From: Bacillales bacterium UBA784
GTDB lineage: Bacteria > Bacillota_I > Bacilli_A > RFN20 > CAG-288
Reading direction: 5' to 3'
Length of the DNA: 64,000 bases
Assembly (NCBI GenBank): GCA_002297045.1
Contig: DBJE01000013.1
Coordinates: 272,509 to 336,508, forward strand
Below are positions 4,130-23,379 of the stretch, piece after piece. Every line of letters begins with the position of its first letter. Position 1 is the stretch's first letter. Made by a program: the position numbers and the translations under genes. The notes under the pieces were generated by a model. That model did not search any database, had not been told where the DNA came from, and saw nothing but the letters and a program-made list of their open reading frames with translations.

Positions 4130-4666
4130 TCAGCGCCGTTTTCTTTCCCTTGTGCGGAAGGAGGATGGGATTTTCTTTAAGAGAAGGGCGTTAATTATGG
4201 CCCTTACGATTCCAGTAAGCAGAGAGAGCGGACCAAGGATGCAGATATAGTAGAAAATATAAGGAGTCGAGAAGAACAAGGCATAGGCAATAAGCTGTCC
4301 TATGGTGTGGAAGAGGGAACCGAATAGGGAAACTGAATAAATCGAAGGGCGGACGAGATAATAAAGGATAAGGGAAATAGTGGTACAAAGAATTGTTCCG
4401 GAGAGTGACATGAAGAAGTTGATGCCAAAGCCGGAGGAAATCAAAGGTACGAGCATTACCTTAACCCTCCTGACAAAGACATAGCTGATTCCTCCATAAT
4501 AATAAAGAACGAACAAAGTGACGATATTGGCTAGTCCTAGCCGAAAGCCGGGGACTGGGAGAAAAGAGGGAATCAGGGATTCAAGAAAATGAAGACCGAC
4601 GGAGAGAGCAATCCTCCTAGCCAAAGATACCCTTCGGATAGTGCTGATATGGAATCTTGTTTTCAT
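4130..4666 (-). CDS. Gx-transporter family membrane protein (Pfam Hpre_diP_synt_I-like)
   Basis: 178 aa and polytopic. HFLESLIPSFLPVPGFRLGLANIVTLFVLYYYG matches the family hallmark (...E..iP.P.PG.kLGLANi..L..L...G) as I recall it. Confidence 0.6.
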   Translation of the reverse strand: MKTRFHISTIRRVSLARRIALSVGLHFLESLIPSFLPVPGFRLGLANIVTLFVLYYYGGISYVFVRRVKVMLVPLISSGFGINFFMSLSGTILCTTISLILYYLVRPSIYSVSLFGSLFHTIGQLIAYALFFSTPYIFYYICILGPLSLLTGIVRAIINALLLKKIPSSFRTRERKRR

Positions 4667-4671
4667 ATTAT

Positions 4672-5220
4672 TCAGTTATCAAACTCCGGGAATCCGCCTT
4701 TTACCGAGATGATCCTTGCCTGCCTCCTATTGGGAAGGCAGACAATCGGAGTGTAGGTACTATAAATCCGTCCCTGCTTTGAACAGTCGTGGTCCTTGCA
4801 AAACACTTCATCGTGCAGTACCTGGATGGAATAATCACTGTAGAGGGTGAAGGTGATGCCTTTGCCGTAAAAGGCAAAATAATTTCCTTCCCCAAGATAG
4901 AGTGGTCCGTCTTCTTTGACAAAAGCGACTTTTTTCTCTCCGGAAGAGGGAAAAGAGATGTTCGTATTCTTCAGTGGATCGTTCTTGTCGTAAAGGAGGG
5001 TGTTCTGATATTTAATCTGGACAAAAAGCGAATCGTTATCTGCTTTTGGCTTAGAGTAGAAGCTGACAAGAAAAACAGCTGCAATAATAAGAAGCGAGAT
5101 AAGAAAAAGGGTTCCGTCTTTAATCGGATGAGGGATGAGGCTCTTTTTCAGTCTATCCGATTCTGTTTCCGGCTGGTTGATTTCTTTGTTTTTCATGACA
5201 ATATTATACGCATAAGCCAA
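4672..5220 (-). CDS. NusG domain II-containing membrane-anchored protein
   Basis: It has an N-terminal TM helix (LFLISLLIIAAVFLVSF). The C-terminal ...VFCKDHDCSKQGRIYSTYTPIVCLPNR... matches the CxxxxC...G.i...g..ivClPn motif of NusG_II proteins. It ends 5 nt before the Gx-transporter gene, a pairing common in Firmicutes. The start (5220 or 5196) is uncertain because neither has a clear SD. Confidence 0.55.
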   Translation of the reverse strand: MAYAYNIVMKNKEINQPETESDRLKKSLIPHPIKDGTLFLISLLIIAAVFLVSFYSKPKADNDSLFVQIKYQNTLLYDKNDPLKNTNISFPSSGEKKVAFVKEDGPLYLGEGNYFAFYGKGITFTLYSDYSIQVLHDEVFCKDHDCSKQGRIYSTYTPIVCLPNRRQARIISVKGGFPEFDN

Positions 5221-6245: not shown

Positions 6246-6272
6246 GGCATGACCATTGGAGGTTTATCAGAG

Positions 6273-7841
6273 ATGAAGAAGAATACTTTGCTGTTCAGTT
6301 CTGTTTTAGCTTTAAGTCTGTTTGGCTGTGCACCGCGCGGAGGAAGCCTTTCTTCTGCCTCAGAGAGTACAACTATGCAGCCGTCCGGGACAATTGTAGA
6401 TGGAATCCGTGTTGCCTATTCTAGGCATGGAAGCTACCTTCTCCGTGCCGAAGTCCAGATTCAAAATGAGGTTGCCAAATCTGTACATTTCGATGAGGTC
6501 GTTTTTTCTGCCTCACCGGATTCGAGCGGAAATTCAATCGCCAAGGCAGTTGATCAAAAAGAAGGCGATAACGTCATTGCCTTAACTACGGGAAAAGATG
6601 ATAAGGTAACGACTACTTATTATGCAAAGTACCTCACGGTAAACGGAAAAACCTATACTGCCTCGGTTAGCGAAGGCAAGCTTTTCTATAAAAATGGTGA
6701 CGAAGATTATGATGTCCTTGCCAAAGGATATACAAGCCAACAGGACAGGGCCAAACTTTATCATGTTCTGACCACAAACTATGCCTTTGGTTCCGATAAG
6801 GACGGAAAGGAAATCGAGGGACTTGTGGCTCCGATTTATTCAAAGGCCAGCAATAGTTCCACCTATTGGCCTTCCGGTGTATATGGATTAGGCTGGAAGG
6901 CAAATATTGCCAAGATTGAGAAAGCCCTTGTAGGCAAAGATCTTTCTAAGGTCTCTTCCGACTATAAGAAAGCGTCCGACTCGGCAAAGTCGAAGACTGG
7001 ATTTGTCGACAATGTCGACACCGGTGCCACTATTTCTTCTTTCAAGTCCTATATTACAACAGCCGCAAGTGCATTCACCGGTGAATCCCGTGTCGTTGAA
7101 CAATTCGGATTAGATCATAATAATTGCTTCTCCCGTACTGAACTTGTTGTCGGCGAGGACAATAAGGTTGTCTATGCCAACATCAATGAAACCAATCAAT
7201 TCCTTTCTAGGCTTGCCCAGAGAAATTCCGATACGGGAAACGATGCTCCTATTGTCCGATTCCATACCGATGCGACGGATAAAGCCGAGGAAGTCAACAA
7301 TTATTATTCCCAGTTTGTTTCGGTCAACGGAAAAGTCTGGACCGGAACAGCAAAAGATAAGGCGGCAAGCCGGGAATATGTCACCTATTCTAGCGGAAAC
7401 GATCAAGATGCCCTGGCTTACTATTCTTCCAGTGCCTATTTGGCTAATGAGTACTATAATGCCCAGTTCCTGAATCTGATTTCTATTGCCAAGGATGCCA
7501 ATGGCTCCGCTTCTTCCGACAAGGTGACCTATGGAAACAGGACTGCCACGAAAGCCGAAAACGGAAACAACTATTGGACTACCGGCCATGGTGCACCGGA
7601 AGACAAAAAACCGGATAACTATGCGACTTGGTGGAAATGGAATGTCGCTGCAGTCGAGAATGCCTTTGTCGGACTTGATTTTACAAGTCTGACTAAGGAT
7701 AGTGCGGTCACTTCTCAGACCGCAGATGCTGACGGACACAAGTATGTCTCCATTAACGGGGTTAAGACTGGCGCTTCTAGGAGCGAAACGAAGAGCTATG
7801 TCCAGTTTGCCCATGAAGCGTATGCTTATTTGGTTAAGTAG
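6273..7841 (+). CDS. extracytosolic lipoprotein with two FMN-binding-type modules (PplA-like)
   Basis: ORF 6249..7841. The start is taken at ATG 6273 (MKKNTLLFSSVLALSLFGCAP, lipobox L-F-G-C) with GGAGG 9 nt upstream. There is an internal duplication (YAKYLTVNGKTYTAS / YSQFVSVNGKVWTGT; YWPSG...KIEKALVGKD / YWTTG...AVENAFVGLD). Each half ends in a flavinylation-type motif, VDTGATISS and VKTGASRSE. Confidence 0.65.
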   Translation: MKKNTLLFSSVLALSLFGCAPRGGSLSSASESTTMQPSGTIVDGIRVAYSRHGSYLLRAEVQIQNEVAKSVHFDEVVFSASPDSSGNSIAKAVDQKEGDNVIALTTGKDDKVTTTYYAKYLTVNGKTYTASVSEGKLFYKNGDEDYDVLAKGYTSQQDRAKLYHVLTTNYAFGSDKDGKEIEGLVAPIYSKASNSSTYWPSGVYGLGWKANIAKIEKALVGKDLSKVSSDYKKASDSAKSKTGFVDNVDTGATISSFKSYITTAASAFTGESRVVEQFGLDHNNCFSRTELVVGEDNKVVYANINETNQFLSRLAQRNSDTGNDAPIVRFHTDATDKAEEVNNYYSQFVSVNGKVWTGTAKDKAASREYVTYSSGNDQDALAYYSSSAYLANEYYNAQFLNLISIAKDANGSASSDKVTYGNRTATKAENGNNYWTTGHGAPEDKKPDNYATWWKWNVAAVENAFVGLDFTSLTKDSAVTSQTADADGHKYVSINGVKTGASRSETKSYVQFAHEAYAYLVK

Positions 7842-7908
7842 TTTTTTGCCTTACCATGGTCTCTCCATGGGTCAGGCCTCGTCTAGATATTAAATTGAGG
7901 TGAATCAA

Positions 7909-9213
7909 ATGTTTCATTTATTCCGTTCTGATGAATCCGCCCACATTCCAGGATATAAGGAGCAGACGAGGAATCTTCCTGTCTGCTCCTATGATCCGGA
8001 GTTTGTCTATATTCCCTGTGTGGATAATCATGGTAATCCCCTTATTAACGCCCTTCCAATCTCCTCTTCCGTTAAGAAGGGAACGCTCTTAGGCCTTCGT
8101 GCACCGGATGATTTTCCTATCTATTCTTCCGTCTCCGGAAAAATCGAAGGTAGGCAGAAGAGGGTAAGGTCCTCTGGCAGAATCAGGGATTGCTTTGTTA
8201 TCCGTAACGACCACAAGGGAGAATGGGATACCCTTACTCCCTTAAAGCCGGCAAACGAAGTTTCCAGAGAGGAAATCATCAACGCCATTAAGAAGAGCGG
8301 CGTCATCGGATTTGGCGGAGCAGGTTTTCCTACTTACCGGAAGTTCAATTCCGGTAAGGAATGCGATGTCTTAATCCTTAATGCCATCGAGTGCGAACCT
8401 TTCCTTACTACCGACTATGTCTATGGTGCAAAGGAGTGTGAATATGCCTTCCTTGCCATCCCTTATCTTCTTAAGGCAAGCGGTGCGAAGAAGGTTGTCT
8501 TCTGCACGAAGAAGGATAAGCCTGCCCTTATCGATGCCTGCGGGAAATGGAAGGCGAAGTACCCTTCTCTTCCTGTCGAGCTTGTGTTGGCCAAGGATGC
8601 CTATCCTAGGGGGTATGAGCGCAACCTTGTCACTTTAGTTACCGGCAAGGAGTATGCCCACATTCCGATTGAGGCTCAGGCCATCGTCGACAATATTTTC
8701 ACTTTTATTTCCTTAGGCCGCTACTTCACGGAGGGAAAGAGTGCAGACTTACGTTGCATCACCGTATCCGGTGAAGTAAGCAAACCAAGGAATATTTTGA
8801 CTCCTTATGGAGTCTATGCCTTGGACCTTCTGCAAAGGGCAGGATACAAAAACGATTCGTCTCTTAAGATTTTAAACGGCGGTCCAAGGAACGGAAACGT
8901 CCTTGATGACGAAAAGTTCGTTCTGCTTCAGCAGGCCGATGGGATTACGGTAAGGAAAAAGTCGTCTTACCGGGCAGAGCCCTGCTGGCATTGCGGAAAC
9001 TGCGCGGAAGCCTGCCCTAGGGACCTTCAGCCTGTGCAGATTCAGATGGCCTACAAGGCAAACGATCTTCAGCGCAGGATTGAACTGAATGCCGATAGGT
9101 GCGTAGGATGTGGACTTTGTTCTTATTCCTGCCCAAGCCGGATTGAAGTCAGCCAGCATGTCAGGGCCGCTAAGGCCTTAGTCATCAAGGCGAGGAAGGA
9201 GGCAAAGAAGTAA
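7909..9213 (+). CDS. rnfC: RnfC paralog 1 (electron-transport complex subunit C)
   Basis: GVIGFGGAGFPTY (the NADH/FMN-site motif of RnfC/Nqo1-like proteins). There are two ferredoxin motifs, CWHCGNCAEACP and CVGCGLCSYSCP. ATG 7909 has GAGGTG 8 nt upstream; the track's GTG 7900 is the alternative. Confidence 0.85.
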   Translation: MFHLFRSDESAHIPGYKEQTRNLPVCSYDPEFVYIPCVDNHGNPLINALPISSSVKKGTLLGLRAPDDFPIYSSVSGKIEGRQKRVRSSGRIRDCFVIRNDHKGEWDTLTPLKPANEVSREEIINAIKKSGVIGFGGAGFPTYRKFNSGKECDVLILNAIECEPFLTTDYVYGAKECEYAFLAIPYLLKASGAKKVVFCTKKDKPALIDACGKWKAKYPSLPVELVLAKDAYPRGYERNLVTLVTGKEYAHIPIEAQAIVDNIFTFISLGRYFTEGKSADLRCITVSGEVSKPRNILTPYGVYALDLLQRAGYKNDSSLKILNGGPRNGNVLDDEKFVLLQQADGITVRKKSSYRAEPCWHCGNCAEACPRDLQPVQIQMAYKANDLQRRIELNADRCVGCGLCSYSCPSRIEVSQHVRAAKALVIKARKEAKK

Positions 9214-9217
9214 CATT

Positions 9218-10354
9218 ATGGATTATCCGAAACAGTTTACACCTCATATTCGGAGAAAGGCGTCGACCTTCTCGCAGAGGAGGGAGTTCTTCCTTTGCGT
9301 CTGTGTCCTTTGGATTAGCAGTAGGATTTACTATTTCGTCACTGCCGGAAAAGGATATGGATTAGCCGTCATTCTTCTTGGCATCACCGGAATCGTCTTT
9401 GCCATGATTCCTGATATCTTTTGGAACCTTAGCGTATTCTTCTCCAAAGAACATAAACAGGATGCGTTTAAAGAGTTTCTCTATCGGGTCATTCATTCCT
9501 ATTCCTTTGTCACCGGCCTTCTTCTTGCCTTGCTTTGCCCGATCGGTCTCCCCTTCTGGAAACTTGCCATCGGTGCAGTTCTTTCTGTGCTTGTCTTTAA
9601 GCTGTTCTTTGGCGGATTCGGAAAGAACATCCTCAATCCTGCCATCTTCGGACGTGTCTTCCTTCAGCTTGCTTTTACCAGTGACAGGAAGACGTATCTA
9701 GGACAGAAGCCGGATGATTTCACTATTTCAACCGGTGCTTCCGTTACCGGATTAATCAACAATAAGAACGGTTTCTCTCCAATTGTCAGTGGTCTTTCCT
9801 TTAAGGATAGGATTATCGGCAATTACCGAGGAACCTTAGGCGAAACTTTTATCCTTGTCCTTCTTGCCATCTGCGTTTATCTTTGTGTCCGGAAGATCAT
9901 CGACTGGCGTGTCCCTGTCACTTATATCGGAACCCTTTTTATCGCCTTTGTCCTGATGTTCCTTTCTGCCGGCGACGGCGGCTGGGCGTTCAAGGATGCC
10001 TTTAGGTATCTTGCTATCGGCGGCATCTTCTTCGGCGGTATCCTCTGTCTGACTGATCCGGTCACTTCTCCGACTAGCCGCTCTGGCCGGATGAGGTTTG
10101 CCTTGACTAGTGCCCTTATCACCCTTCTTATCCGTCTTTATACCGGGTCTCCGGAAGGCGTCGCCTATTCCATCCTGATTGCCAATGTGATGACTCCCTT
10201 CTTTGACAAGATCAACACTGGCCGGACAAATAAGAAACTCGTCCCTATTGCCGTCAATGCTTCCCTTTTTGCTCTCGTCCTTCTCTCTGCCCTTGTCTAT
10301 GGGTTTAGGAACAAAATCAATCCTTCTACGGGAAGGTTCCTGAAAGGTAGGTAA
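9218..10354 (+). CDS. rnfD: RnfD paralog 1 (NqrB/RnfD family membrane subunit)
   Basis: Polytopic. Motifs are FGKNILNPAIFGRVF, STGASVTG (covalent-FMN motif position) and LTDPVTSP. Confidence 0.85.
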   Translation: MDYPKQFTPHIRRKASTFSQRREFFLCVCVLWISSRIYYFVTAGKGYGLAVILLGITGIVFAMIPDIFWNLSVFFSKEHKQDAFKEFLYRVIHSYSFVTGLLLALLCPIGLPFWKLAIGAVLSVLVFKLFFGGFGKNILNPAIFGRVFLQLAFTSDRKTYLGQKPDDFTISTGASVTGLINNKNGFSPIVSGLSFKDRIIGNYRGTLGETFILVLLAICVYLCVRKIIDWRVPVTYIGTLFIAFVLMFLSAGDGGWAFKDAFRYLAIGGIFFGGILCLTDPVTSPTSRSGRMRFALTSALITLLIRLYTGSPEGVAYSILIANVMTPFFDKINTGRTNKKLVPIAVNASLFALVLLSALVYGFRNKINPSTGRFLKGR

Positions 10355-10356
10355 AG

Positions 10357-10881
10357 ATGAATCAAAGGTTTAAAAACTGGATTATCGGTGCTTCTGCCGC
10401 CCTTATCCTTGGTGCTGCCTCCGTTGGGCTATATTTCGGAATCGTCCCGGAGAAAAGCCCTCTTTCCGATAATGTGATGAGCAGGTTTGAAAAAGATTCC
10501 CCGACCGGGAGGGACTCTCTTGATCTTTCTTCCCTTTCGGCTGATGATTCAAAAATGATTAAGGAAGCCGATAAAGTCTATCTTTCTTCTTCCTCGGTCT
10601 CTGCCTATTATTTTGGTCTGAGTTCTTATGACGGAAGCTATGGTTCGCTTAACTTTGCTATCGGGGTCAAGGACTCCGTCGTCACCTATTATCATTTCAT
10701 CGATGCCGGAGCGGCGGATGATCTTGGCGCCGGACAGGCCCAGGATAACGAAGGGAAAAGGTTTGTCGGCTACACTCTTGGCGGAGACGATGTCAGGGCC
10801 GGAGCGACAGCCGAAGAGACCTATTCCGATAGGAAAAAGGCGGTCGATGCGGCTCTGACTTTTGTGAAAGGAAGGGATTAA
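10357..10881 (+). CDS. rnfG: RnfG paralog 1 (FMN-binding subunit)
   Basis: 174 aa with an N-terminal TM anchor (WIIGASAALILGAASVGLYF). FMN_bind-type C-terminus with VRAGATAEE. The position between rnfD and rnfE is as expected. Confidence 0.7.
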   Translation: MNQRFKNWIIGASAALILGAASVGLYFGIVPEKSPLSDNVMSRFEKDSPTGRDSLDLSSLSADDSKMIKEADKVYLSSSSVSAYYFGLSSYDGSYGSLNFAIGVKDSVVTYYHFIDAGAADDLGAGQAQDNEGKRFVGYTLGGDDVRAGATAEETYSDRKKAVDAALTFVKGRD

Positions 10882-10883
10882 CG

Positions 10884-11594
10884 ATGTCAACTCTTGAAAA
10901 AACCGGTTTTAAGAAAAGCTTCCTCGACGGACTTTTCTATAAGAATCCGTTCTTTGTCCTCTTTCTCGGTCTGACTCTGGTCAGGATCTCCACGACCCGT
11001 CTTGAGACAGCCCTCATTGTCGGGCTGATTGCCGGAATCGAGCTTAGGGTGACTCAGCTTGTCCTCTCCCTTCTCCGTAAACACCTAGATAAGGTCGGCG
11101 CCTATCTTACCGCCCTTATTCTTGCAGCCGGGCTATCCACCATCTTCGGAATGGTGCTTGGACTTCGTTTCTCCTCTTTCCTGAAATATGTCAACGTCAA
11201 TGGGGCTAACGGAAAGTTTCTGACTATCGCCGTCCCCTTCCTCTGTACCTCTTCGTTCATTCTCGATCAGGCTGACGAATCGCTCTTCCATCCTCTTTCC
11301 GATACCAGGGGCTATTCCCTTGGCTCGTTCCTTGGCTTCCTTGCCGCTTTAATCCTTATTTCCCTCTTCCGCGAAGTTCTTTCTACCGGAAGGATTACCT
11401 TCTATGATGCCAAGGGTCAGGAATACGGACCGATTCTCTGGTCGAAGGACGTGTTCTCCCTTCCGATCCTTGATAAGCCTTTCGGCGGTTTCCTCTTTGC
11501 CGGAGTATTCAGGGGAATCTACCGTTCCATCCTTAACTTAGTCCTTAGCCATAAGGATAAGAAGGAAAAGTCCAAACTGAAGGAGGCTGAGTAA
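10884..11594 (+). CDS. divergent RnfE-like membrane subunit (lacks the GxCP Cys and the NC..LGRAE motif)
   Basis: LDGLFYKNPFFVLFLGL... and the C-terminal LFREVLSTGRITF match the RnfE/NqrD ends, and the operon position fits. The protein has only one Cys (FLCTSS). Confidence 0.6.
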   Translation: MSTLEKTGFKKSFLDGLFYKNPFFVLFLGLTLVRISTTRLETALIVGLIAGIELRVTQLVLSLLRKHLDKVGAYLTALILAAGLSTIFGMVLGLRFSSFLKYVNVNGANGKFLTIAVPFLCTSSFILDQADESLFHPLSDTRGYSLGSFLGFLAALILISLFREVLSTGRITFYDAKGQEYGPILWSKDVFSLPILDKPFGGFLFAGVFRGIYRSILNLVLSHKDKKEKSKLKEAE

Positions 11595-11595
11595 T

Positions 11596-12165
11596 ATGCA
11601 GTTCATCGGTGCAATTCTGACGGCGTTCTTCGCCAAGAACCTGATTCTTCAGGGACATGATCTCCGTGATGGCATCCATCTTGGCAATAGACACTACCCT
11701 CACCGTCTTGTTTTTCTTGGTCTTTATGTCCTAGAATCCCTTGTCATCTCTATCGTCGGATATTTAATCTCCAAATATGGAAAAGGAAGGGAGATCCTTT
11801 CCTATCTTGCTTTCTTTATCTATGCCCTCATCGCCGCCTTAAGGACAGGCCTTTTCTCTCTCGCTTTCAAGAAATTCTTCCCCCAGCTTGAAAAGGAACT
11901 CCATGAAGACTGGATTGAACGTGCCTGCTCGACTGCCTTAATCGCCGTCGGTGCCTCTGCCTTGACCTGGGCTAGCGTCTCTGCGGCGGAAAGGGTAGGA
12001 CTTAGGCTTGCGATGCCTATTGGCTTTGCCCTTTCTTCCTTTGTCTTCTCTGCCCTTTATGAGCGGGTAAGGGAAGATGGAGATGCCAAGGGCTTCCGGG
12101 GAATCCCTCTTCTTCTTCTTTCTTTGGCCGGTGCCTCGCTTGGCGTAGTCAGGAGGAGCTTCTGA
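11596..12165 (+). CDS. divergent RnfA-like membrane subunit
   Basis: The N-terminal FIGAILTAFFAKNLILQG and C-terminal YERVREDG..KGFRGIPLLLLSLAGASL resemble RnfA/NqrE ends. The protein has only one Cys (ERACSTA). Its position is after the rnfE-like gene. Confidence 0.55.
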   Translation: MQFIGAILTAFFAKNLILQGHDLRDGIHLGNRHYPHRLVFLGLYVLESLVISIVGYLISKYGKGREILSYLAFFIYALIAALRTGLFSLAFKKFFPQLEKELHEDWIERACSTALIAVGASALTWASVSAAERVGLRLAMPIGFALSSFVFSALYERVREDGDAKGFRGIPLLLLSLAGASLGVVRRSF

Positions 12166-12196
12166 TTTTTTCCTTTGTAGGAATCTGTTAAAATAG

Positions 12197-12223
12197 ATAC
12201 GCTGCCTAGGCAGCGTATTTTTT
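12197..12223 (+). terminator. Intrinsic-terminator-like palindrome plus T5 directly abutting the apbE-1 start codon
   Basis: ATACGCTGC-CTAG-GCAGCGTAT (perfect palindrome) is followed by TTTTT, then ATG at 12224. It lies 32 nt downstream of the rnfA-like stop. Confidence 0.6.
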
Positions 12224-13756
12224 ATGAAAACCAAAATCATCTGTCTGCTTTTTTCCTCTCTTTCCTTTTTCCTTTCTTCTTGCAAGGAAAACAAGGTGGA
12301 AAGAATCGAAACCCTGTCGAATCCCTATCTGTTTTCCACGAAGGGGGAGATACGGATAAACAGCGACGAAAGCCTTTCTCTCTCTCCTTTTGATACTTCC
12401 ATCACCGGAAGCATTTATTATTACGGGGGTGACTTCACGGAAGAAGAACTTGCTTCTATCCATTCTCTTTTTGACTACTCTTTTTCTTATTATCATGCTC
12501 TCTCCGACCGGCATTATTCTTATTCCCGGTATGATGAAAAGGGAAATAAGGCCGAGGAAATCAACAATGTCCGGACAATCAATGAAAGCTACGGTACGGG
12601 AAAAAAGGTAAAAGTTGATTCTTTCCTGTATGACCTACTAAAGAAAAGCTATGAGTTTTCCAGGAACAGCGATGGAAAGTTCAACAGGTTTTTAGGAACG
12701 CTGAACGACCTCTATGAGAATAAGCTTTCCTCTTTGGAAGAGGATGGTTCCTTGGATAGCGAATACAAAAAGAACAGCGTCCTGACCGTCACGACAAAAA
12801 GGAAGTTCTCCTCTTTCTCCGCCAATGAAAAGAACCGGATTTCCTCCCTAGTCTCTTCTCTTCCCCGGACAAAGGAAGAGAGGCAGGGCCTTCTCTCCTT
12901 TGATGATGCAACCTCTTCCGTCACCTTCAACAAATACAAGGACACGAAGAACCTGGAAATTTCCCTCGGGGGAAATGCCAAAGGATATGCCACGGAAAGG
13001 TTCTGCCGGCAGAGGCAGAAGGAATATCCTAATAGGTCCCTTGTCATCAATTCCGGCTCTTCTTCCATCAAGGCAATCGGACAGCGGCCGGACAAACGGG
13101 AATGGAAGATCCAGTATACGAACCCTTGCTATAAGGAAAGTATCGATCTTAGCCGGTACAATCCTTATGAAGTGGTGATTTCCCATAATGGGGCTTTTAA
13201 CCTCTCCACTTCCGGATATTACGAGCAGTATTTCTACTCTTATCTTCCGGACGGAGAGGGCGTTTATGATCCTAATTCTCCCTTTATCCTAAACAGCCAT
13301 ATTCTTAATCCTTCCACTGGGTATTCCACAAGGACGTTCGACCAGGTGTCCGTGTTTCTTAATGACACAGGCCTTGCCGATAGGTACACGACTGCCCTTA
13401 GGAACACTTCTTCCATTAAGGAGGCAGAAGCGCTCTTTGCTTCCCTCAATAAGATTTATTCTGTTTCCGATGCCGGGCTTAGGCTATGCCTTAAGGAAAA
13501 GGACGGCTCCCCTTATTTTTATAAAAGGTCGGACTACTCTCCTCTTCAGAGTAACGGGCTTCCCTGCATTAAAACTGCCAAGGGGGAGTATAGCGGAGAC
13601 TTTTCCGACCTTGACGAAGCACCGCAGGAATACCTCTCCCGATATGTCTCCTCCTTTGAGGAGGTCTATTACCTTACCGGCAATAGGAGGGAGAAGGCTT
13701 CCATGACGGAAGAGAACGGGAAACAAGTGATTTCCCGACTGGAGGAACTGAAATGA
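12224..13756 (+). CDS. apbE: ApbE-family FAD:protein FMN transferase, lipoprotein (copy 1)
   Basis: MKTKIICLLFSSLSFFLSSCKE is a lipobox signal peptide. ApbE motifs present are GGNAKGYATE, INSGSSSI, HILNPSTGYS and GLADRYTTAL. Confidence 0.8.
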   Translation: MKTKIICLLFSSLSFFLSSCKENKVERIETLSNPYLFSTKGEIRINSDESLSLSPFDTSITGSIYYYGGDFTEEELASIHSLFDYSFSYYHALSDRHYSYSRYDEKGNKAEEINNVRTINESYGTGKKVKVDSFLYDLLKKSYEFSRNSDGKFNRFLGTLNDLYENKLSSLEEDGSLDSEYKKNSVLTVTTKRKFSSFSANEKNRISSLVSSLPRTKEERQGLLSFDDATSSVTFNKYKDTKNLEISLGGNAKGYATERFCRQRQKEYPNRSLVINSGSSSIKAIGQRPDKREWKIQYTNPCYKESIDLSRYNPYEVVISHNGAFNLSTSGYYEQYFYSYLPDGEGVYDPNSPFILNSHILNPSTGYSTRTFDQVSVFLNDTGLADRYTTALRNTSSIKEAEALFASLNKIYSVSDAGLRLCLKEKDGSPYFYKRSDYSPLQSNGLPCIKTAKGEYSGDFSDLDEAPQEYLSRYVSSFEEVYYLTGNRREKASMTEENGKQVISRLEELK

Positions 13757-15354
13757 AAAAATCCGCTTTGCTTATTCTCTCTCTTGGCTTTGTCCTTTCC
13801 GGATGCCAAAACGGGAGGAAGGGTTCCTCCTTGTCTTCTTCCCCCTCTTCCTCCCTTCGCCCACAGGAGGATGAAAAAGTGTTTTCCAGGCAGACCATCT
13901 ATATCGGAATCGCTTCCGGCGATATCCGTGTCGTCCCTCCTAGCGAGAACAGCACAAGGGTCGGAGTGAGTCCGTTTAATACATCCATCCAGGGGAAGGT
14001 CTACTATTATGAAGGCGACTATTTCGACGATGACCTTAACGTCATCGCCGAGGATTTTAACTCCCTCTTCTCTCTTTACCATGCCTTAAGCGATAACCAC
14101 TACAACTATAAAGAGGTGACAAAGCGGGATGACAGGGGCAACGCCTTGGAAAGGAAAGACATCGTCAATGTCAAGTACATCAATGATCACCCGGGAGAAA
14201 GGATACAGGTTGATCCCTTCCTTTATGATTTATTGAAGCGGAGCTATGACTTCACCCTGAATTCTTCTTTGATGTTCAATAGGTTCTCCGAGAGTCTCTC
14301 TTCTCTTTATGAGGACAAACTCTCCGAAGACGAATATTCGGGAAAGGCCCTAAACAAGGCTTTCTCCCTCTCAAGGAATGTCCGGTTCAAGGACGATTTT
14401 TCCCCGTCGGATATTCAAAACGCCCTGCTTAGCGTTCCGGAAAGTAAAGAGGAAGCAAAAGGCTGCCTCACCTTTGACGAAGAAAAGAAAGCCGTCCGGC
14501 TGAATAAGAGGGTAAAGGACGGGAAGGAATATACTCCGAGAAGGAATCTCGGGGGATGCGCGAAGGGATTTGCGACTAAGGCGGTCGCCGATTATTTTAA
14601 GGGTCTCTATCCGGACATTTCCCTTAGGATCAACTCCGGCTCTTCCTCCATCCTTGCCGTAGGGAGCCGGCCGGATTCTTTGCCGTGGAAAATCACCTAT
14701 GTCAATCCGATTAGCCATGAAAGAATCAACCAAGGCGGAACAAACCCAAGCGAGCTTTATCTTCAGTTCAAAGGTCCCTTCAACAGGTCGACATCCGGAT
14801 ATTACGAACATTATTTTTATTGTTATGACCCACAGAAGAAGGAAATCTTCCGGAGAGACCATATCTTCAATACGGAAAACGGTTTTTCCGCTCCCTTCTT
14901 CGACCAGGTCTCCGTCCTTTTGGACGATGCCGGGCTTGCCGACAGGTATACCACGGCGATAAGGAACTGCAAGGGGACAGAGGAAGCATTTGCCCTGTTT
15001 GACCGCCTGAACAAGGTCTATTCCACCTCGGGGGAACTATTGGTCTGTTATAAGGGAGAGAAAGGAAACGAGGATAGTCTTTATAGCTATTCTCTTTCGG
15101 ACAGGTCTCCCTTATCCTCTCTAGGATACCCAATCTCCATTCTCAATGACGGAAGCGAATATGACGGTGACTACCTTGATGTTTCCCTTTCGGATATCAA
15201 AGACACGAAGACAAAAAGCAAGTATCGGTTTTCCGAGGTCTACCTAAGGAGCGGGAAGAGGTATCAGGCAAGCCATCTCTTCACGGAAAAGAATGATACG
15301 TTCTTCCCTTATCCGGACAAGGCAATCTCCGTCAGAAAAGAACATAAAGGATAA
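13753..15354 (+). CDS. apbE: ApbE-family FAD:protein FMN transferase, lipoprotein (copy 2)
   Basis: There is an ATGA overlap with copy 1 and GGAGGA upstream. MKKSALLILSLGFVLSGCQN has a lipobox. Motifs are GGCAKGFATK, INSGSSSI, HIFNTENGFS and GLADRYTTAI. It is clearly paralogous to copy 1 (shared SPF(D/N)TSI.G..YYY.GD...). Confidence 0.8.
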   Translation: MKKSALLILSLGFVLSGCQNGRKGSSLSSSPSSSLRPQEDEKVFSRQTIYIGIASGDIRVVPPSENSTRVGVSPFNTSIQGKVYYYEGDYFDDDLNVIAEDFNSLFSLYHALSDNHYNYKEVTKRDDRGNALERKDIVNVKYINDHPGERIQVDPFLYDLLKRSYDFTLNSSLMFNRFSESLSSLYEDKLSEDEYSGKALNKAFSLSRNVRFKDDFSPSDIQNALLSVPESKEEAKGCLTFDEEKKAVRLNKRVKDGKEYTPRRNLGGCAKGFATKAVADYFKGLYPDISLRINSGSSSILAVGSRPDSLPWKITYVNPISHERINQGGTNPSELYLQFKGPFNRSTSGYYEHYFYCYDPQKKEIFRRDHIFNTENGFSAPFFDQVSVLLDDAGLADRYTTAIRNCKGTEEAFALFDRLNKVYSTSGELLVCYKGEKGNEDSLYSYSLSDRSPLSSLGYPISILNDGSEYDGDYLDVSLSDIKDTKTKSKYRFSEVYLRSGKRYQASHLFTEKNDTFFPYPDKAISVRKEHKG

Positions 15355-15451: not shown

Positions 15452-17755
15452 ATGAAAAATTTAAAGCTGTTGACTCTTCTTTCCCTCATTCCTGTTTTCT
15501 CTCTGGCTGGCTGTAAAGGCAATGCCGGGAGCGATTCTTCGTCTGTTTCTTCCTCTGTGCCGGAACAGACTTCTTCCTCCTCTAACGGCAGCCACGAGAT
15601 TTCCCCGGATCCCTATGCCCAGGTCCTGGACGGACTGGATAAGACGAAGGATGTCTTCCGGGATCAGTATAGGCAAACCCATACCTATCTTGGCGGATAT
15701 ACCGAGACGGTGAACGGAGTCAAGGTCTCCTATGGCTGGATCGAGTATACAAGCACCTGGGGAACCTACGGCGTCGCGGTCAAACTGACCATCACCGCCG
15801 AAGGAAAGATTAAGGAAATCAAGCTTGGTGCTCCGGATAAGGACGTCCACAACTTCACTCCGTCCTATGGACAGACTTCCGGGTACGATATTTATAACGA
15901 TTATATTGCCAACTATGAGAAGAATCTGAACGCGGCCTTCGCCAATAAATCGGTCAGGAACGCCTTTAATTCCCTTAAGGACGCTATCTGCGAACCGAAC
16001 CTTAAGCCGACGGAAACAGACAGCGGCACCTTCACCCCATCCAAGAATGATCCGACCGTCAAGGCCGGTGCCACCCAGACGGCAGCCCGCACGGAACGTG
16101 CCATTTTTGCCGCCGCCGGCGCCTATCTTAGCGAGTACAATCCAAACGCCCGCATCTTTGCCCATGTCTATAACAACCTAAAGGCAGAGGATAGGCCTAC
16201 CGATAACAATGTTTCGTTAGGCTATAGGAAGACCACGGACGGAAGTTATGGCTATGCTAGGTATCAGTCCTGGGGCAGCTACTATGGTGCCGCCGTCAAA
16301 ATCAAGGTCAAGGCAAACAACGTCATCGACCATGTCTATTTAGGAACCCCAAGGAAAGGCGCCCATAACTTCACTCCCTGGTACGCTGTCTCCGATCCGA
16401 ATAATTTCATTGAGTTCTACCAGAAGGCCGAAGAACTGGTCAACAACCAGCTTGTCGGCAAGGTGGTGAATGAACAGCTGAGGAATAAGTACAAGTCTGC
16501 CACGCTTGAACCTGGAACCTCTACCTTTACACCGGCTGAAACGATTCTTTCTGCCGGTGCGACACAGACCAATGTCCGTCTGGATCGTGCCATCGCCTCC
16601 GCTAGGGAAGGCATCCTTTCCTCTGTGGAAGCTAAACCGGATGAGGGCGGAGTGGTCGACGAAGTCCTCCCTGGTGCCGACACTATTTCCGGATCGGAAA
16701 TTTATGCCTCCTACAACCATCTTAAATCCGATTATGTCACCCCTGAGGAAAATCAGAACGGATACTATAATGCCCAGACGATGACTGCCTATGGCTGGAG
16801 GCGTTATGAGAATCCCTGGTCCAAGGGCAGCTATTATGGTGCCGCCGTTTCTCTGACCTTTGACAAGAATAAGAACATCACTGATGTCAAAGTCGGTGTC
16901 TCCCAAAAAGGCGATGTCAATAGGACGACAATCTACCGTGCCCACTATGATTCCGACCCACTTTATCTAGATAACTATGCACAGTATTTGATTCAGGATA
17001 GGAAGGCTGCCTTAAGCGGGAAGACCGCAGCCGATGTCTATAAATCCACACTCTCTGCCGGCGTGGAAAATAATGACGGCAATCTTATCTTCACTCCTGG
17101 CGACTATGACTTCCTTGGCGCTGGTGCCACGCAGACGACTAGCCGAATCAATGTCGCCCTCTTCGAGGCGGCCTCTGCCTATAGGCTTGCCACTGATCCC
17201 TTCACAAAGAATGTGTTTGAGGATTTAAAGCTTGTCAAAGGAACGGACATCAAGGACAACACCTTCCACCAGGGCGGAAAGAAAGGCACGGATTCAAAAA
17301 CCGGTACCGCTTATGTCTATGGCTATACCGTTTACTACATCTCGTCCTGGCAGAGCTACTATGGTGCAGCCGTCAAGCTTACTTATGATAGCGACAGGAA
17401 GATTACGGCTGTAGAGACCGGAGAACCGAAAATTGAGGATTCCGCTAAGTCTTGGGCCGCCGCGACGAACTTCACCGCAAGTTATACCTTCACTTCTACC
17501 TCTTCCCGCAGTGACTATCTAAAGTATTACACGACCATCAAGGAGGAAATCGATAAAGCCCTTATCGGAAAGACCATCAACGAAGAACTTGCCCAGCAGT
17601 TTGCTGCCGCCAAGGTCGAATTCGATCCGAATGACAGTGAGAAGAACACCTATACTCCTGCTTCTGTCCGCTTCGTCGGAGCAGGTGCCACGCAGACTGA
17701 TACCCGTGTCGCTGCTTCTATCTATGGTGCCCTTCAGGCTGCCCTGAAAAAGTAA
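15452..17755 (+). CDS. lipoprotein with four tandem FMN-binding-type modules, each with a GATQT flavinylation motif
   Basis: MKNLKLLTLLSLIPVFSLAGCKG has a lipobox. There are four ~170-190-aa repeats of the pattern ...Y.S.WG.YG(A/V)AVK(L/I)....I..(I/V)..G.P....HNFTP.Y......FTP...(A/G)GATQT..R...A. The Thr codons of the four GAT motifs are at 16073-75, 16562-64, 17129-31 and 17690-92. Confidence 0.7.
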   Translation: MKNLKLLTLLSLIPVFSLAGCKGNAGSDSSSVSSSVPEQTSSSSNGSHEISPDPYAQVLDGLDKTKDVFRDQYRQTHTYLGGYTETVNGVKVSYGWIEYTSTWGTYGVAVKLTITAEGKIKEIKLGAPDKDVHNFTPSYGQTSGYDIYNDYIANYEKNLNAAFANKSVRNAFNSLKDAICEPNLKPTETDSGTFTPSKNDPTVKAGATQTAARTERAIFAAAGAYLSEYNPNARIFAHVYNNLKAEDRPTDNNVSLGYRKTTDGSYGYARYQSWGSYYGAAVKIKVKANNVIDHVYLGTPRKGAHNFTPWYAVSDPNNFIEFYQKAEELVNNQLVGKVVNEQLRNKYKSATLEPGTSTFTPAETILSAGATQTNVRLDRAIASAREGILSSVEAKPDEGGVVDEVLPGADTISGSEIYASYNHLKSDYVTPEENQNGYYNAQTMTAYGWRRYENPWSKGSYYGAAVSLTFDKNKNITDVKVGVSQKGDVNRTTIYRAHYDSDPLYLDNYAQYLIQDRKAALSGKTAADVYKSTLSAGVENNDGNLIFTPGDYDFLGAGATQTTSRINVALFEAASAYRLATDPFTKNVFEDLKLVKGTDIKDNTFHQGGKKGTDSKTGTAYVYGYTVYYISSWQSYYGAAVKLTYDSDRKITAVETGEPKIEDSAKSWAAATNFTASYTFTSTSSRSDYLKYYTTIKEEIDKALIGKTINEELAQQFAAAKVEFDPNDSEKNTYTPASVRFVGAGATQTDTRVAASIYGALQAALKK

Positions 17756-17769: not shown

Positions 17770-19077
17770 ATGATTAGGAAGACTAAAGTACTTCAGGGAA
17801 GGATGAGAGTGTCTACCGAGCCGACCATCTCGCTTAAGCTCCCTCCCTTCCTTTATATCGAAGCGACGAATGCAAACTGTCCGAAGGCCGACATCTATGT
17901 CCAGCCTGGCGATCAGGTCAAGCTTTACCAGGTTATCGGAAGGCGGCACGGGAAAGGGTTTGACTTACCTATCCATGCCACCTGTTCGGGAACCTATTCC
18001 GGACTGGAAAAGCATTACTATCGGAACGGGAAAAGGGTCGAGTTCAGGAAGATCGAGAACGATGGAAAGGATACTTCTGATCCCGGCTTTGGAAAAGAGC
18101 GTTCCGATGAGGAAGTCTCAAACCTCACCAAAAAGGACAGGGCCGAAATCTTGAAAAACACCGGCTCTGTCGGACTTGGCGGCTCCTGCTATCCTACTTA
18201 TCTCCGTTTTGAATCCGATAAGAAAATCGATACCATCCTGGTTAATGCCGTAGAAAGCGAGCCCTTTGTCTCTGCTGACCATACTCTTGCCCTTGATGAA
18301 AGGGAAAGCGTCATCAAGGGGACAAAGTTACTTAGGCAGGCTTTCTCCTGCCCTAAGGCGGTAATCTGCTTCAAGAAGAAAGACCAAGACCTGCTCCAGG
18401 CCTATGGACAATATCTTTCGGCAAACCAGACTTCTGCCATTTCGGCTAGGACAGTAAGCAATGACTATCCTCAGGGATGGGAGAACGCTCTTGTCAAATC
18501 CGTTACCGGGAAAGTCATCCCTCTAGGTCATCTTCCTAGGGAATACGGAGTCAGGAACTTCAATATTGCCACGGTTGTCAGCATCTATAACGCCATCAAA
18601 TATAACCTTCCTACCATCGAACGTCTGGTTTCCGTTTCCGGCAACGGCGTAAGGAATCCTGCAAACGTGAAGGTCCGAGTCGGTGCTCCGGTCAAATACG
18701 TGATTGCCGCCTGCGGAGGTTATAGCCTTGGCGCAAAGAAGGTTCTTGTTCTTGGCGGCCCTAGGTCGGGGACTTCCCTTCCTAGCGATGATGCCATTGT
18801 CACTAGGGACGTTCCTTCTATCCTCGTCTTCAATGATAAGAAGGTGAAAGTCTCACCTTGCATCCGCTGCGGATCCTGTGTGATGTCCTGTCCTGTCGGC
18901 CTTCAGCCGGTTACCATCAGGAACACGAGGAACACAAGGCCTGTCGACCGGGAAAAAATTAAGCTTCTCCATCCTCAGGATTGCATCGGCTGCGGCCTAT
19001 GCTCCTATTCCTGCACGAGCCATATCGATGTCATGTCTTCCGTCGCCCGTGCCAAAGTCATTGCGAGGTTAAAGTAA
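17770..19077 (+). CDS. rnfC: RnfC paralog 2
   Basis: GSVGLGGSCYPTY. Ferredoxin motifs are CIRCGSCVMSCP and CIGCGLCSYSCT. It is collinear with paralog 1. Confidence 0.85.
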   Translation: MIRKTKVLQGRMRVSTEPTISLKLPPFLYIEATNANCPKADIYVQPGDQVKLYQVIGRRHGKGFDLPIHATCSGTYSGLEKHYYRNGKRVEFRKIENDGKDTSDPGFGKERSDEEVSNLTKKDRAEILKNTGSVGLGGSCYPTYLRFESDKKIDTILVNAVESEPFVSADHTLALDERESVIKGTKLLRQAFSCPKAVICFKKKDQDLLQAYGQYLSANQTSAISARTVSNDYPQGWENALVKSVTGKVIPLGHLPREYGVRNFNIATVVSIYNAIKYNLPTIERLVSVSGNGVRNPANVKVRVGAPVKYVIAACGGYSLGAKKVLVLGGPRSGTSLPSDDAIVTRDVPSILVFNDKKVKVSPCIRCGSCVMSCPVGLQPVTIRNTRNTRPVDREKIKLLHPQDCIGCGLCSYSCTSHIDVMSSVARAKVIARLK

Positions 19078-19078: not shown

Positions 19079-20224
19079 ATGGAATTCGTCAAAGTTAGTG
19101 GTCCCTTTATCCGCCGGAAGGATTCGGTCTCCCGGAGGATGCTGGATGTTTTAATCGCTCTTCTTCCTGTCGTCATCGCTGCCTTTGTCTACTATCCTAT
19201 CCCTGCCCTTCGCAACATCTCCCTTTCCATTTTGACAAGGTTACTCTGTGAACTTGTCTTTGTCCTGATTTATCATCGCATTCCTTATGACGGAGAGAAG
19301 CACACCTTTAAACAGTGGTGGGATAATTTTAGAAAGTCTTTTACCCTCAATAACATTACGGTTCCTCTTGTCTCGGGTGTCATTTATGGCTTAAGGAGGC
19401 CTGTTGCCACAAAAGACAATCCCAATTTCATCTACTATCCGCTTATCATCGGAGCAATTTTCGGCAGGGTGATTGGTAAGCTTATCTTCGGCGGAACAGG
19501 AAAGAACATCTTCAATCCTGCCCTTGTCGGTTGGGTCTTCGCCAAACTCTGCTTTGGAAGCCATTACGATTATCCTTCTGCCAGTAAGTTCCTCTCCAAT
19601 GAAATCTTCACTGGTGCGACAAGCCTTGACCCTTCCCATTTCTCCCTTGCCAATAAGGTCTATTCCATCAATTCCTCTGCCCTGCTCGACAGGTTCCTCG
19701 GAAAGAGGACCGGCCTTGTCGGAGAGACCTGTAAAATCGCCATCCTTGTCGGGCTTGTCTATCTTATCGTCCGTCATACGATTGACTGGCGTATTCCGGC
19801 TAGGTACCTTGGAACGGTCGCCTTTAGGTCACTGATTCTCGGCACCATCATTTTCGGGGCCAACAAGTCCACTCTTTCTGCTTCCTATCCTTTTGTCTTC
19901 AGGACCTACCAGCTTTTAAGCGGCGGCTTACTCTTTGGGGCGGTCTTCAGGGCGACGGATCCCGTCACTTCCCCGCTCACCCATCCTGACCGTCTGATCT
20001 ATGGCGCCTTCCTTGGCGTCTGCACGAGGATCATCCGTCTTTTCGGTTCCCTTCCGGAAGGTACTGCCTTCTCGATTCTGATGGGCAATGCCCTGACTCC
20101 GGTCATCGGCTACTATAAATGGTCGACTACCCGATATACCTGGAAGAATCTGACCCTGCTTGCTTCAGTCATCCTCGTTCCGACCCTGATTAGGATCTGG
20201 GCAGGATGCAGGAGGGTTTTCTAA
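19079..20224 (+). CDS. rnfD: RnfD paralog 2
   Basis: Motifs are GTGKNIFNPALVGWVF, FTGATSLDP (covalent-FMN motif) and F(AGG)ATDPVTSP. Confidence 0.85.
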   Translation: MEFVKVSGPFIRRKDSVSRRMLDVLIALLPVVIAAFVYYPIPALRNISLSILTRLLCELVFVLIYHRIPYDGEKHTFKQWWDNFRKSFTLNNITVPLVSGVIYGLRRPVATKDNPNFIYYPLIIGAIFGRVIGKLIFGGTGKNIFNPALVGWVFAKLCFGSHYDYPSASKFLSNEIFTGATSLDPSHFSLANKVYSINSSALLDRFLGKRTGLVGETCKIAILVGLVYLIVRHTIDWRIPARYLGTVAFRSLILGTIIFGANKSTLSASYPFVFRTYQLLSGGLLFGAVFRATDPVTSPLTHPDRLIYGAFLGVCTRIIRLFGSLPEGTAFSILMGNALTPVIGYYKWSTTRYTWKNLTLLASVILVPTLIRIWAGCRRVF

Positions 20225-21675: not shown

Positions 21676-22476
21676 ATGATTGCGGATAAAAATGTTTCGG
21701 CTGTCAGCCAGCCTAGTGAAATGCCGGCAAAGAAAGCAAAACCGAAGAGCGAATCCTCTCTTCGCCATAAGGCTGCCTTTGTCACCGGTATCTTTAAGAA
21801 CAACCCACTCTTCGTCGCCGTTTTAGGAACCTGCCCGGCCTTAGCCGTCACGACCTCCTTGGAGGTTGCCCTTGGCATGGGCCTTCTCTTCACCTTCGTC
21901 CTTGTCTGTTCCAACGTTCTGATTTCCGCCCTTCGTAAGCTCATCCCCGAGGAAATCGAGATTCCTGCCTATATCGTCATCATCGCCGCCTTTGTGACCG
22001 TCGTCAAAAGGAGGACGAACGCCTTCATACCGGAACTGTACTCCTCCCTTGGCGTCTTTCTTTCCCTGATTGTCGTCAACTGCGTCGTCCTTGGGCGGGC
22101 AGAGGCTTTTGCCAAATATAACGGAGTCCTTGACTCCCTTCTTGACGGCCTTGGAAACGGCATCGGCTATACTCTGGCCATTTCTATCATCGGCCTCATC
22201 CGGGAAATCCTCGGCTCTGGTTCCATCACAATCGGCAAGGTCTTTACCTTTATCCATGGAAGCAACAATAGTCCTATTGTCCTTCCGATTCTGAAAGGGA
22301 CCGGATACGACTTCTCCATGTCCGTCTTTACCAATGCCGCAGGCGGCTTTATCGTCTTCGGTCTTGTCTTATTTATCATCAACATCATCACCATGCATAA
22401 GAACAACAAAAAGAAATTCGCCAGGAAGAAGGCTAGGCTCACCGCCGCCTCTCTTAGCGGAAAGAAAGGAGCCTAA
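21676..22476 (+). CDS. rnfE: RnfE paralog 2 (canonical)
   Basis: FKNNPLFVAVLGTCPALAVTTSLE and LGVFLSLIVVNCVVLGRAEAFA are hallmark RnfE/NqrD motifs, with both conserved Cys present. Confidence 0.85.
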   Translation: MIADKNVSAVSQPSEMPAKKAKPKSESSLRHKAAFVTGIFKNNPLFVAVLGTCPALAVTTSLEVALGMGLLFTFVLVCSNVLISALRKLIPEEIEIPAYIVIIAAFVTVVKRRTNAFIPELYSSLGVFLSLIVVNCVVLGRAEAFAKYNGVLDSLLDGLGNGIGYTLAISIIGLIREILGSGSITIGKVFTFIHGSNNSPIVLPILKGTGYDFSMSVFTNAAGGFIVFGLVLFIINIITMHKNNKKKFARKKARLTAASLSGKKGA

Positions 22477-23120: not shown

Positions 23121-23379
23121 ACTACTTCTTTCCCGGCCTTTGCAGATCACTTTCGGCATTCTCTTTGTCCTTCTTCTTGTCGGTGTGTTTCTTCTTGTCT
23201 GTGTCCTCAACCACCGCACACCGGTTCCGAAAGGATGCGAGAAGCTAAGACCGGATGCCAATCAGTGTGCAGGCTGTCAGCTCTTCTCTTCCTGTCCGAT
23301 CCATCGTGTTCCGGACAAGGAGACGAAGCCTCAGAAAAAGAACAGGGCTGAAACTAAGGAGAAAAAAGATCATGAATAA
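23113..23379 (+). CDS. small membrane-anchored Cys-rich protein (88 aa)
   Basis: GTG start overlapping the rnfA stop, with AAGGGG 6 nt upstream. It has one TM helix (ITFGILFVLLLVGVFLLVCVL), then C-x9-C-x2-C-x5-C (GCEKLRPDANQCAGCQLFSSCP), then a Lys-rich tail. The function is unknown. Confidence 0.45.
   Translation: MLKLLLSRPLQITFGILFVLLLVGVFLLVCVLNHRTPVPKGCEKLRPDANQCAGCQLFSSCPIHRVPDKETKPQKKNRAETKEKKDHE

Follow-up and report, generated by a model that had tools for sequence, protein, structure and literature searches.

An rnfCDGEA operon without RnfB and without the RnfA/E cluster ligands in Candidatus Enterosoma, a probable one-way relative of Rnf

Introduction

In the canonical Rnf complex (RnfCDGEAB, a Na+/H+-translocating ferredoxin:NAD+ oxidoreductase; structures 7ZC6, 8AHX and 9ERI), electrons are passed from ferredoxin through RnfB, the RnfA/E [2Fe-2S] cluster, the flavin mononucleotide (FMN) of RnfG, the FMN of RnfD, riboflavin, and the iron–sulfur (Fe-S) centres and FMN of RnfC to nicotinamide adenine dinucleotide (NAD+) (PMC12174285, PMC11889175). 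In reviews of Rnf and Nqr, the four membrane subunits are presented as strictly conserved together with their intramembrane [2Fe-2S] cluster, which is placed at the heart of the pump (PMC12174285, PMC11889175); one of them gives an account of redox-controlled conformational switching of NqrD/E (PMC12174285). Here, we analysed a stretch of 64,000 nucleotides from Bacillales bacterium UBA784, a gut bacterium (contig DBJE01000013.1 of assembly GCA_002297045.1, positions 272,509 to 336,508; hereafter the window), which carries two rnf gene sets on a common strand within a span of 17 kb. One of them, set 1 (rnfC1-D1-G1-E1-A1), has no rnfB and has lost all ligands of the RnfA/E cluster. We consider it probable that set 1 is a half-Rnf, which would conduct electrons one way from NADH through RnfC, RnfD and RnfG-FMN to extracytosolic acceptors, with the E/A pair acting as a scaffold.

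Set 1 shares with canonical Rnf the C-D-G-E-A gene order, the NADH/FMN site and two [4Fe-4S] motifs of RnfC, the flavinylation motif and riboflavin ligands of RnfD, a putative RnfG-type FMN domain, the RnfE and RnfA folds, and neighbouring ApbE and eetA/eetB genes. It differs in the absence of RnfB, in the replacement of 4/4 cysteine ligands of the [2Fe-2S] cluster, and in an ion pair of the RnfE Na+ pathway, which is not conserved. Having lost RnfB and the cluster ligands, set 1 should be unable to take electrons from ferredoxin along the established route, and only one half of the semicircular electron path would be left.

The closest published idea concerns two-subunit NQR/RNF-like systems, for which a one-way flow from NAD(P)H through an RnfD/NqrB-type subunit to an RnfG/NqrC-type extracytosolic flavin was proposed (PMC8238504, PMC11334425). 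This is the same one-way logic as proposed here for set 1. In those systems, however, the RnfD-like domain is fused to an NqrF-type PF00175 domain and lacks the RnfD flavinylation site, and RnfC, RnfA and RnfE are missing, whereas set 1 has a separate RnfC, a flavinylatable RnfD that comprises PF03116 only, without PF00175, and a cluster-less A/E pair. In the survey by which such systems were catalogued, a cluster counted as "RNF" if it contained RnfB (PMC8238504), so operons without rnfB fall outside its RNF class. Multi-flavinylated Rnf clusters are likewise RnfB-defined and were interpreted as a complete Rnf that has gained a bifurcated path (Meheust et al. 2021). The Na+-translocating NADH:quinone oxidoreductase (Na+-NQR; NqrABCDEF) combines a cofactor-less NqrA with an NqrF that carries flavin adenine dinucleotide (FAD) and [2Fe-2S]; unlike it, set 1 has an RnfC-type C subunit and no NqrF-like gene in the gene cluster. 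The Listeria system resembles set 1 in its extracytosolic proteins flavinylated by ApbE, as predicted for set 1, in an adjoining eetA/eetB-type gene pair for flavin trafficking and in the proposed exit of electrons to acceptors outside the membrane, but it uses Ndh2 and demethylmenaquinone. No description of an rnfCDGEA operon without rnfB, or of a Cys-less RnfA/E pair, was found in the searchable literature.

Results

Loss of the cluster site in E1 and A1

Judged by their sequences, E1 (10884..11594, + strand; 236 residues) and A1 (11596..12165, + strand; 189 residues) are intact but diverged homologues of RnfE and RnfA, respectively, with the six-helix fold kept and the [2Fe-2S] site gone. 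A1 is strongly diverged. Their Pfam Rnf-Nqr scores were 63.6 bits for E1 versus 208 for its set 2 counterpart E2, and 23.0 bits for A1, under the cut-off of 23.8, versus 165 for A2. Residues 9–211 of E1 nevertheless align with RnfE of Acetobacterium woodii (9eri_E), and the AlphaFold2 (AF2) model of E1, with a predicted local distance difference test (pLDDT) value of 74.7, retrieved RnfE/NqrD structures as its top 11 Foldseek matches in the PDB (E-values 2e-6 to 1.4e-4; template-modelling (TM) scores 0.65–0.79). The original prediction, made from this DNA alone, held that only family-like termini survive in the E- and A-like proteins of set 1, which is too strong for E1 in view of this end-to-end alignment. 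The AF2 model of A1 was weak (pLDDT 58.7), and although RnfA structures ranked first and second in Foldseek (7zc6_A and 9eri_A), their E-values were not significant. The assignment of A1 as RnfA relies instead on synteny and on the comparison of its family profile with A2 in hhalign (probability 90.5%, E-value 1.4e-6, 173 columns); A1 also matches RnfA in length and operon position.

In A. woodii, the [2Fe-2S] cluster is ligated by C25 and C108 in RnfE and by C25 and C113 in RnfA (PMC11889175). At these positions, E1 has Thr31 (within LGLTLV) and Ser124 (within FLCTSS), and A1 has Arg24 and Ala114. Across the E1-like family the two sites are occupied by Thr/Ala/Ser and by Ser, and across the A1-like family by Arg/Asn/Ser and by Ala/Ser, with Cys in no member of either. 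By contrast, 4/4 ligands are kept in set 2 (C53 and C136 of E2; C33 and C121 of A2), which bears out its earlier description as canonical. The description of the set 1 subunits as degenerate, with one Cys each, was right as to the count; these lone residues (C121 in E1 and C111 in A1) lie three residues before the second ligand position, and all four ligands are replaced.

A shifted ligand pair formed by the two lone Cys was considered and rejected: they are not conserved, being absent in P0007, P0011 and more distant congeners, and both are found at position -3 in pseudo-symmetric subunits. Alignment after translation of AGG as Met placed no Cys at any ligand site. The same residues bear on a broader alternative, namely that another cytoplasmic partner or cofactor replaces RnfB and the cluster, so that a second transmembrane electron path persists. 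That each subunit retains one Cys so close to a former ligand speaks for it, whereas their patchy occurrence speaks against it, as does their placement at pseudo-symmetric positions, which, going by the published architecture, would leave the former cluster site between the two.

All proteins were translated with AGG read as Met, since both codon alignments and a published AGG-to-Met reassignment in Candidatus Enterosoma (PMC13092985) support this reading. In the genes tested (6249–13756), AGG was the commonest "Arg-box" codon, with 63 occurrences. Window AGG codons aligned with orthologue AGG 54 times, ATG 14 times, Leu codons nine times, Ile codons eight times and an Arg codon once, whereas the other Arg codons of the window aligned with Arg 62 times; AGG thus acts like Met or some other hydrophobic residue rather than like Arg. 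The correction called for in the original prediction was thus justified.

The E1-like family has kept a set of invariant motifs (KNP, GLTL, PF, RE and PFGG). In A. woodii RnfE, the R67–E115 ion pair has been implicated in Na+ entry and reported as essential for Na+-dependent growth (PMC11889175). Alignment mapping placed Ala/Ser and a variable D/E/Q/K at these two positions in the E1-like family, a change that may fit a loss of cluster-gated pumping. The argument is weak, because the Arg is missing from E2 as well: this canonical subunit has Glu (PEEIEIP) at the R67 position.

Absence of RnfB

No rnfB follows A1, as had been noted before: a mere 58 nucleotides, which include a hairpin and a T5 run, separate it from the next gene, apbE. 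The only RnfB N-terminal domain in the source genome (1.52 Mb in 14 contigs) is that of the short rnfB after set 2.

Cofactor equipment of RnfC1, RnfD1 and RnfG1

The other three subunits look functional, with their cofactor motifs retained, in agreement with the earlier view that they are intact. The NADH/FMN-binding subunit RnfC1 (7900..9213, + strand) carries two [4Fe-4S] motifs, CWHCGNCAEACP and CVGCGLCSYSCP. It scored 262.9 bits against TIGR01945 (rnfC; cut-off 245.95) and matched Pfam Complex1_51K, RnfC_N and two copies of Fer4; against the nqrA models it reached at most 58 bits, with cut-offs above 320. The membrane flavoprotein RnfD1 (9218..10354, + strand) matched Pfam NQR2_RnfD_RnfE (PF03116) with 220.9 bits and TIGR01946 with 168 bits, below the cut-off of 207, and aligned with the solved RnfD structures 7zc6_D (1e-37) and 9eri_D (5e-33). 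Its TGAS flavinylation motif falls within one residue of the flavinylated T156, and the equivalents of the riboflavin ligands N123 and D249, the Asn of NPA and the Asp of TDP, are conserved. The orthologue in the congener G015 has SGAT at the TGAS site.

RnfG1 (10357..10881, + strand) is a predicted membrane-anchored extracytosolic FMN-binding subunit with an AGAT motif, in which Gly149 and Thr151 are invariant in the family. The window protein alone had no match in Pfam or PDB searches. A profile built from seven orthologues found RnfG (7zc6_G) as its best PDB match, albeit only at an E-value of 0.009, with the flavinylated Thr aligned to the invariant Thr, and the G015 orthologue exceeded the Pfam FMN_bind threshold (27.4 bits). 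In L017, L018, L019, L021 and L024, the corresponding motif reads AG-A/M/T/V-T, and the canonical [S/T]GA[S/T] has been lost in most congeners.

Conservation and independence from set 2

Proportions of non-synonymous (pN) and synonymous (pS) differences were computed against contig L025, which has the same gene order as the window (LP0-C-D-G-E-A-ApbE) and an E1 that is 83% identical. The values of pN and pS were 0.103 and 0.712 for E1, 0.178 and 0.642 for A1, 0.125 and 0.739 for C1, and 0.090 and 0.633 for D1. As the synonymous substitution rate (dS) was saturated (1.4–3.2), these values serve only to set pN against pS and give no precise ratio of non-synonymous to synonymous rates (dN/dS). 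With pN far below pS, E1 and A1 are under purifying selection, like C1 and D1.

Of about 42 Candidatus Enterosoma genomes sampled, 15 had the C-D-G-E-A operon, and the frames are open in the orthologous operons of many congeners, whose E1 identities range from 61% down to 33%. Within the order, E1-like genes scoring 225–327 bits were found in 15 of 301 genomes, all of them Enterosoma, and every other match scored at most 115 bits. More than 15 orthologous operons contained no stops or frameshifts; the relatives' genes are open, and the pseudogenisation envisaged earlier as grounds for dismissing the system was not found. Compared subunit by subunit, sets 1 and 2 are 22–31% identical (C1/C2 31%, E1/E2 28%), and in the trees, C1 and E1 lie in deep starred clades apart from C2 and E2. 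One suggestion of the original prediction was that set 1 arose by duplication and is now decaying. The low Rnf-Nqr scores of E1 and A1 point that way, but the uninterrupted frames, a pN/pS of about 0.14–0.28, the genus-wide operon and the ancient divergence leave it almost certainly wrong.

Six congeners (G002, G004, G010, G014, G015 and G021; 84–93% complete) hold the set 1 type alone, with the E1-like gene as their sole Rnf-Nqr match. Whole-genome searches of these six found no RnfB N-terminal domain, generic ferredoxin motifs being restricted to unrelated large proteins, and no canonical RnfE/RnfA (PF02508) pair. Since these congeners have no other set, the second earlier suggestion, that C1, D1 and G1 borrow E, A and B from set 2, cannot be the family's way of working. 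Borrowing is unneeded, and impossible in these six, and is left as a possible extra in the source genome. Set 1 is a stand-alone system that does not depend on set 2 at the level of the family.

Mixed complexes confined to the source genome, either of C1/D1/G1 with E2/A2/B2 or of set 2 with E1/A1 as alternative subunits, would be favoured by the presence of both sets on one strand within 17 kb and by two further genomes, G009 and G018, that hold both types. Yet in G009 the sets lie on different contigs, E1 and A1 are co-translated and conserved with C1, D1 and G1, the sets share no more than 22–31% identity, and the six congeners with set 1 alone have no canonical E, A or B to offer. Such mixing is very improbable in our estimation.

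Recurrence of Cys-deficient operons without rnfB

The E1-like family profile was searched against 1.84 billion cluster representatives, of which 12 matched at E <= 1e-30, with a gap between these and the next matches. Of the best 149 RnfE-like representatives, 61 were without at least one of the two ligand Cys, a proportion that gives no frequency estimate, as the query profile favours Cys-less sequences. Among these 149, the first site was replaced by T, S, A, F, V, I, M, P or G and the second by S, G, T, A, Y, L, I, V or P. Replacements as heterogeneous and often hydrophobic as these (Phe, Val, Ile, Met, Pro, Gly) argue against a substitute metal site.

In a FastTree phylogeny of RnfE-like proteins, the Cys state changed at least 14 times, with at least six changes forced by well-supported branches. 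E1 belongs to an 11-member clade without any ligand Cys, which is nested in a 35-member clade where 25 members lack both Cys, nine have one and one has both. All seven Cys-deficient RnfE lineages with usable context (Enterosoma set 1, L035/L036, L037–L041, L042, L043, L046 and L051) had no adjacent rnfB, and the A-like partners of Cys-deficient RnfE were also without both ligands. Conversely, rnfB came right after rnfA in 5/5 Cys-complete operons (window set 2, G009, G018, L054 and L055). This pattern is as expected if the branch from RnfB to the [2Fe-2S] cluster is lost as a unit, and it supports the third suggestion of the original prediction, a neofunctionalised module with an apparently altered transmembrane electron path.

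The gene complement of these operons varies. L035 and L036 (a Bacillota metagenome-assembled genome and Ca. Darwinibacter acetoxidans) encode C, a D-G fusion with three SGAT modules, E and A, followed by comEA and comEC. The order in L037–L041 (Clostridiales) is ApbE, C, D, a G of 431 residues, E and A, and then an unrelated gene; L042 has ApbE, C, D, G, E and A; L046 has C, D, a G of 344 residues, E and A; and L051 has ApbE, C, a D-FMN_bind fusion, G, E and A. No gene consistently adjoins the operons without rnfB, and the residues that substitute for the ligands vary between lineages, so the replacement of RnfB and the cluster by another partner or cofactor, introduced above on the strength of the lone Cys, appears quite improbable.

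Fusion of RnfD to extracytosolic FMN modules was observed twice, at L035:5413-7401 (662 residues, three SGAT) and L051:2976-4868 (630 residues, FMN_bind match). The RnfE-like proteins P0024, P0030 and those of L037–L041 keep the first ligand Cys, the second being replaced by Ser, Leu or Asp, while their RnfA partners have lost both and no rnfB is present; they may be intermediates.

The L043 locus (6947–10619) encodes an RnfD-like protein, a Cys-less RnfE-like protein of 305 residues (P0058), an RnfA-like protein of 219 residues and an unknown gene product of 300 residues, without RnfC, RnfG or RnfB. Its RnfE-like protein belongs to the 35-member clade that includes E1, and its E/A pair is Cys-deficient like that of set 1, but set 1 keeps the full chain from NADH to RnfG. 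This stand-alone trio is related to the membrane core of Rnf and has been reduced further still.

Gene neighbourhood

On the + strand of the window, the order is LP0, rnfC1-D1-G1-E1-A1, two apbE genes, LP3, rnfC2-D2-G2-E2-A2 and a short rnfB. The open reading frames of set 1 are packed tightly, with intergenic gaps of 1–4 nucleotides. Between A1 and the first apbE, a perfect 9-bp hairpin followed by T5 was read from the sequence (12197..12223, + strand), which is a possible operon end or attenuator; a scan of the window for consensus promoters and terminators listed this palindrome and returned nothing informative beyond it. The two tandem ApbE flavin-transferase lipoproteins (12224–13756 and 13753–15354, + strand; Pfam ApbE 103.6 and 81.4 bits) are 41% identical to each other.

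Directly upstream of rnfC1 lies the lipoprotein gene LP0 (6249..7841, + strand), the product of which has TGAT and TGAS motifs and found no match in Pfam or in single-sequence PDB searches. An LP0 orthologue precedes set 1 in G018 and L025 also, and LP0 is a candidate extracytosolic flavoprotein partner, although its linkage to set 1 is not constant. Further upstream, a divergent pair on the - strand comprises an eetB-like gene of the FAD-exporter ECF-S type (4130–4666; PF07456, 104 bits) and an eetA-like NusG_II gene (4672–5220; PF07009, 36.8 bits). EetB is a component of FAD export that often adjoins Rnf and ApbE genes (PMC9973259), and in G015 an eetA/eetB-like pair is found directly 3' of the A1-like gene.

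LP3 (15452–17755, + strand) encodes a four-module FMN lipoprotein with GATQT-type modules, which likewise had no match in the Pfam and single-sequence PDB searches. Two-module LP3 homologues of ~390 residues occur at separate loci in G015, G016 and G021. Set 2 follows on the + strand, with rnfC2 (17770–19077), rnfD2 (19079–20224), a long rnfG2 (20225–21673), E2 (21676–22476), A2 (22482–23120) and, directly after the A2 region, the short rnfB (about 23372–23701). The product of the latter is reduced to about 106–109 residues, with a membrane helix and the PF04060 Fe-S domain (profile positions 5–81 of 190), and has no ferredoxin-type domains (window 23113–23701). A short rnfB is also kept in two congeners (G009:C23:58573-58803 and G018:C92:19373-19606) and in two other metagenomic operons with a Cys-complete RnfE (L054:8291-8811 and L055:6908-7457), in which an open reading frame of 65–75 residues precedes it.

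Discussion

In set 1, the ferredoxin branch would have been given up together with RnfB and the A/E cluster, and the NADH branch retained, with electrons passing from NADH to the FMN and two [4Fe-4S] centres of RnfC, the riboflavin and covalent FMN of RnfD, and the covalent FMN of RnfG. Unlike in canonical Rnf, where RnfG-FMN exchanges electrons with the A/E cluster, RnfG-FMN of set 1 would have no redox partner in the membrane, and electrons should consequently exit to, or less likely enter from, extracytosolic acceptors. Candidate acceptors would be ApbE-flavinylated lipoproteins, free flavins and other soluble compounds. The neighbouring ApbE and eetA/eetB genes, the lipoproteins with flavinylation motifs, and the enlarged or fused flavin modules in other operons without rnfB are the grounds for reading set 1 as a one-way conduit. 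The main contact of RnfG in A. woodii lies inside the RnfA/E cavity (PMC11889175), which would explain why the E/A pair has been kept: E1 and A1 most likely form a structural cradle on which RnfG and RnfD dock. By this route, a fermenter without quinone would pass NADH electrons to acceptors beyond the membrane. From the genes, we infer which way the electrons flow, that E/A serve as a scaffold, what the acceptors are and that ion pumping has been lost.

Several observations weigh against the half-Rnf. LP3 lies directly upstream of set 2 in G009 (G009:C23:50665-52968), off the contig that carries set 1, and LP0-like proteins occur also in congeners with canonical Rnf only; LP3 and LP0 are accordingly unsupported as dedicated partners of set 1. 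Searches of nine Enterosoma genomes for a flavin reductase of the FrdA type (PF00890) gave only weak Rossmann-type matches. The RnfG1-type motif is just G-x-T in several relatives, for which reason its flavinylation is something we infer. The sample linking Cys loss to the absence of rnfB is small (seven versus five), is uncorrected for phylogeny, and was mostly judged from gene neighbourhoods. Finally, the conservation of motifs in E and A exceeds what a passive scaffold might need, which gives room for a role in handling ions or a substrate.

This last point leads to the rival that the cluster-less E1 and A1 form an alternating-access ion or solute translocator, with electron flow from NADH to the outside coupled to, or driven by, a Na+ or H+ gradient. 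Motifs are strongly conserved in both the E1-like and A1-like families, and E1 and D1 are under equally strong selection. Hau et al. are said to have assigned, in 2023, Na+ translocation in Nqr to NqrB, in which case pumping need not depend on the A/E cluster. On the other hand, that cluster is absent from set 1, and the E1-like family has Ala/Ser in place of R67 of RnfE and a variable residue (D/E/Q/K) in place of E115. We regard the translocator as rather unlikely. Only as a tentative and on the whole unlikely proposal would we add that RnfCDGEA without RnfB and cluster represents a widespread, undescribed third functional class of Rnf/Nqr that could still translocate ions. If ions are translocated without the cluster, set 1 would be a natural knockout that separates electron transfer by RnfD and RnfG from the cluster-gated RnfA/E switch, and would offer a direct test of the site of Na+ pumping in Rnf and Nqr.

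For the family, the finding means that a conserved lineage dispenses with the cluster and RnfB yet keeps A and E, contrary to the strict conservation described so far, and that this natural cluster-less variant could be used to test the disputed site of ion translocation. It is relevant to those who study Rnf/Nqr or model gut anaerobes, while introducing no new principle. It implies that many "Rnf" genes of gut Firmicutes cannot be ferredoxin:NAD+ pumps and that metabolic models that assume so are wrong. Probably, NADH electrons can reach extracytosolic flavoproteins by an export route that derives from Rnf and does not depend on quinones.

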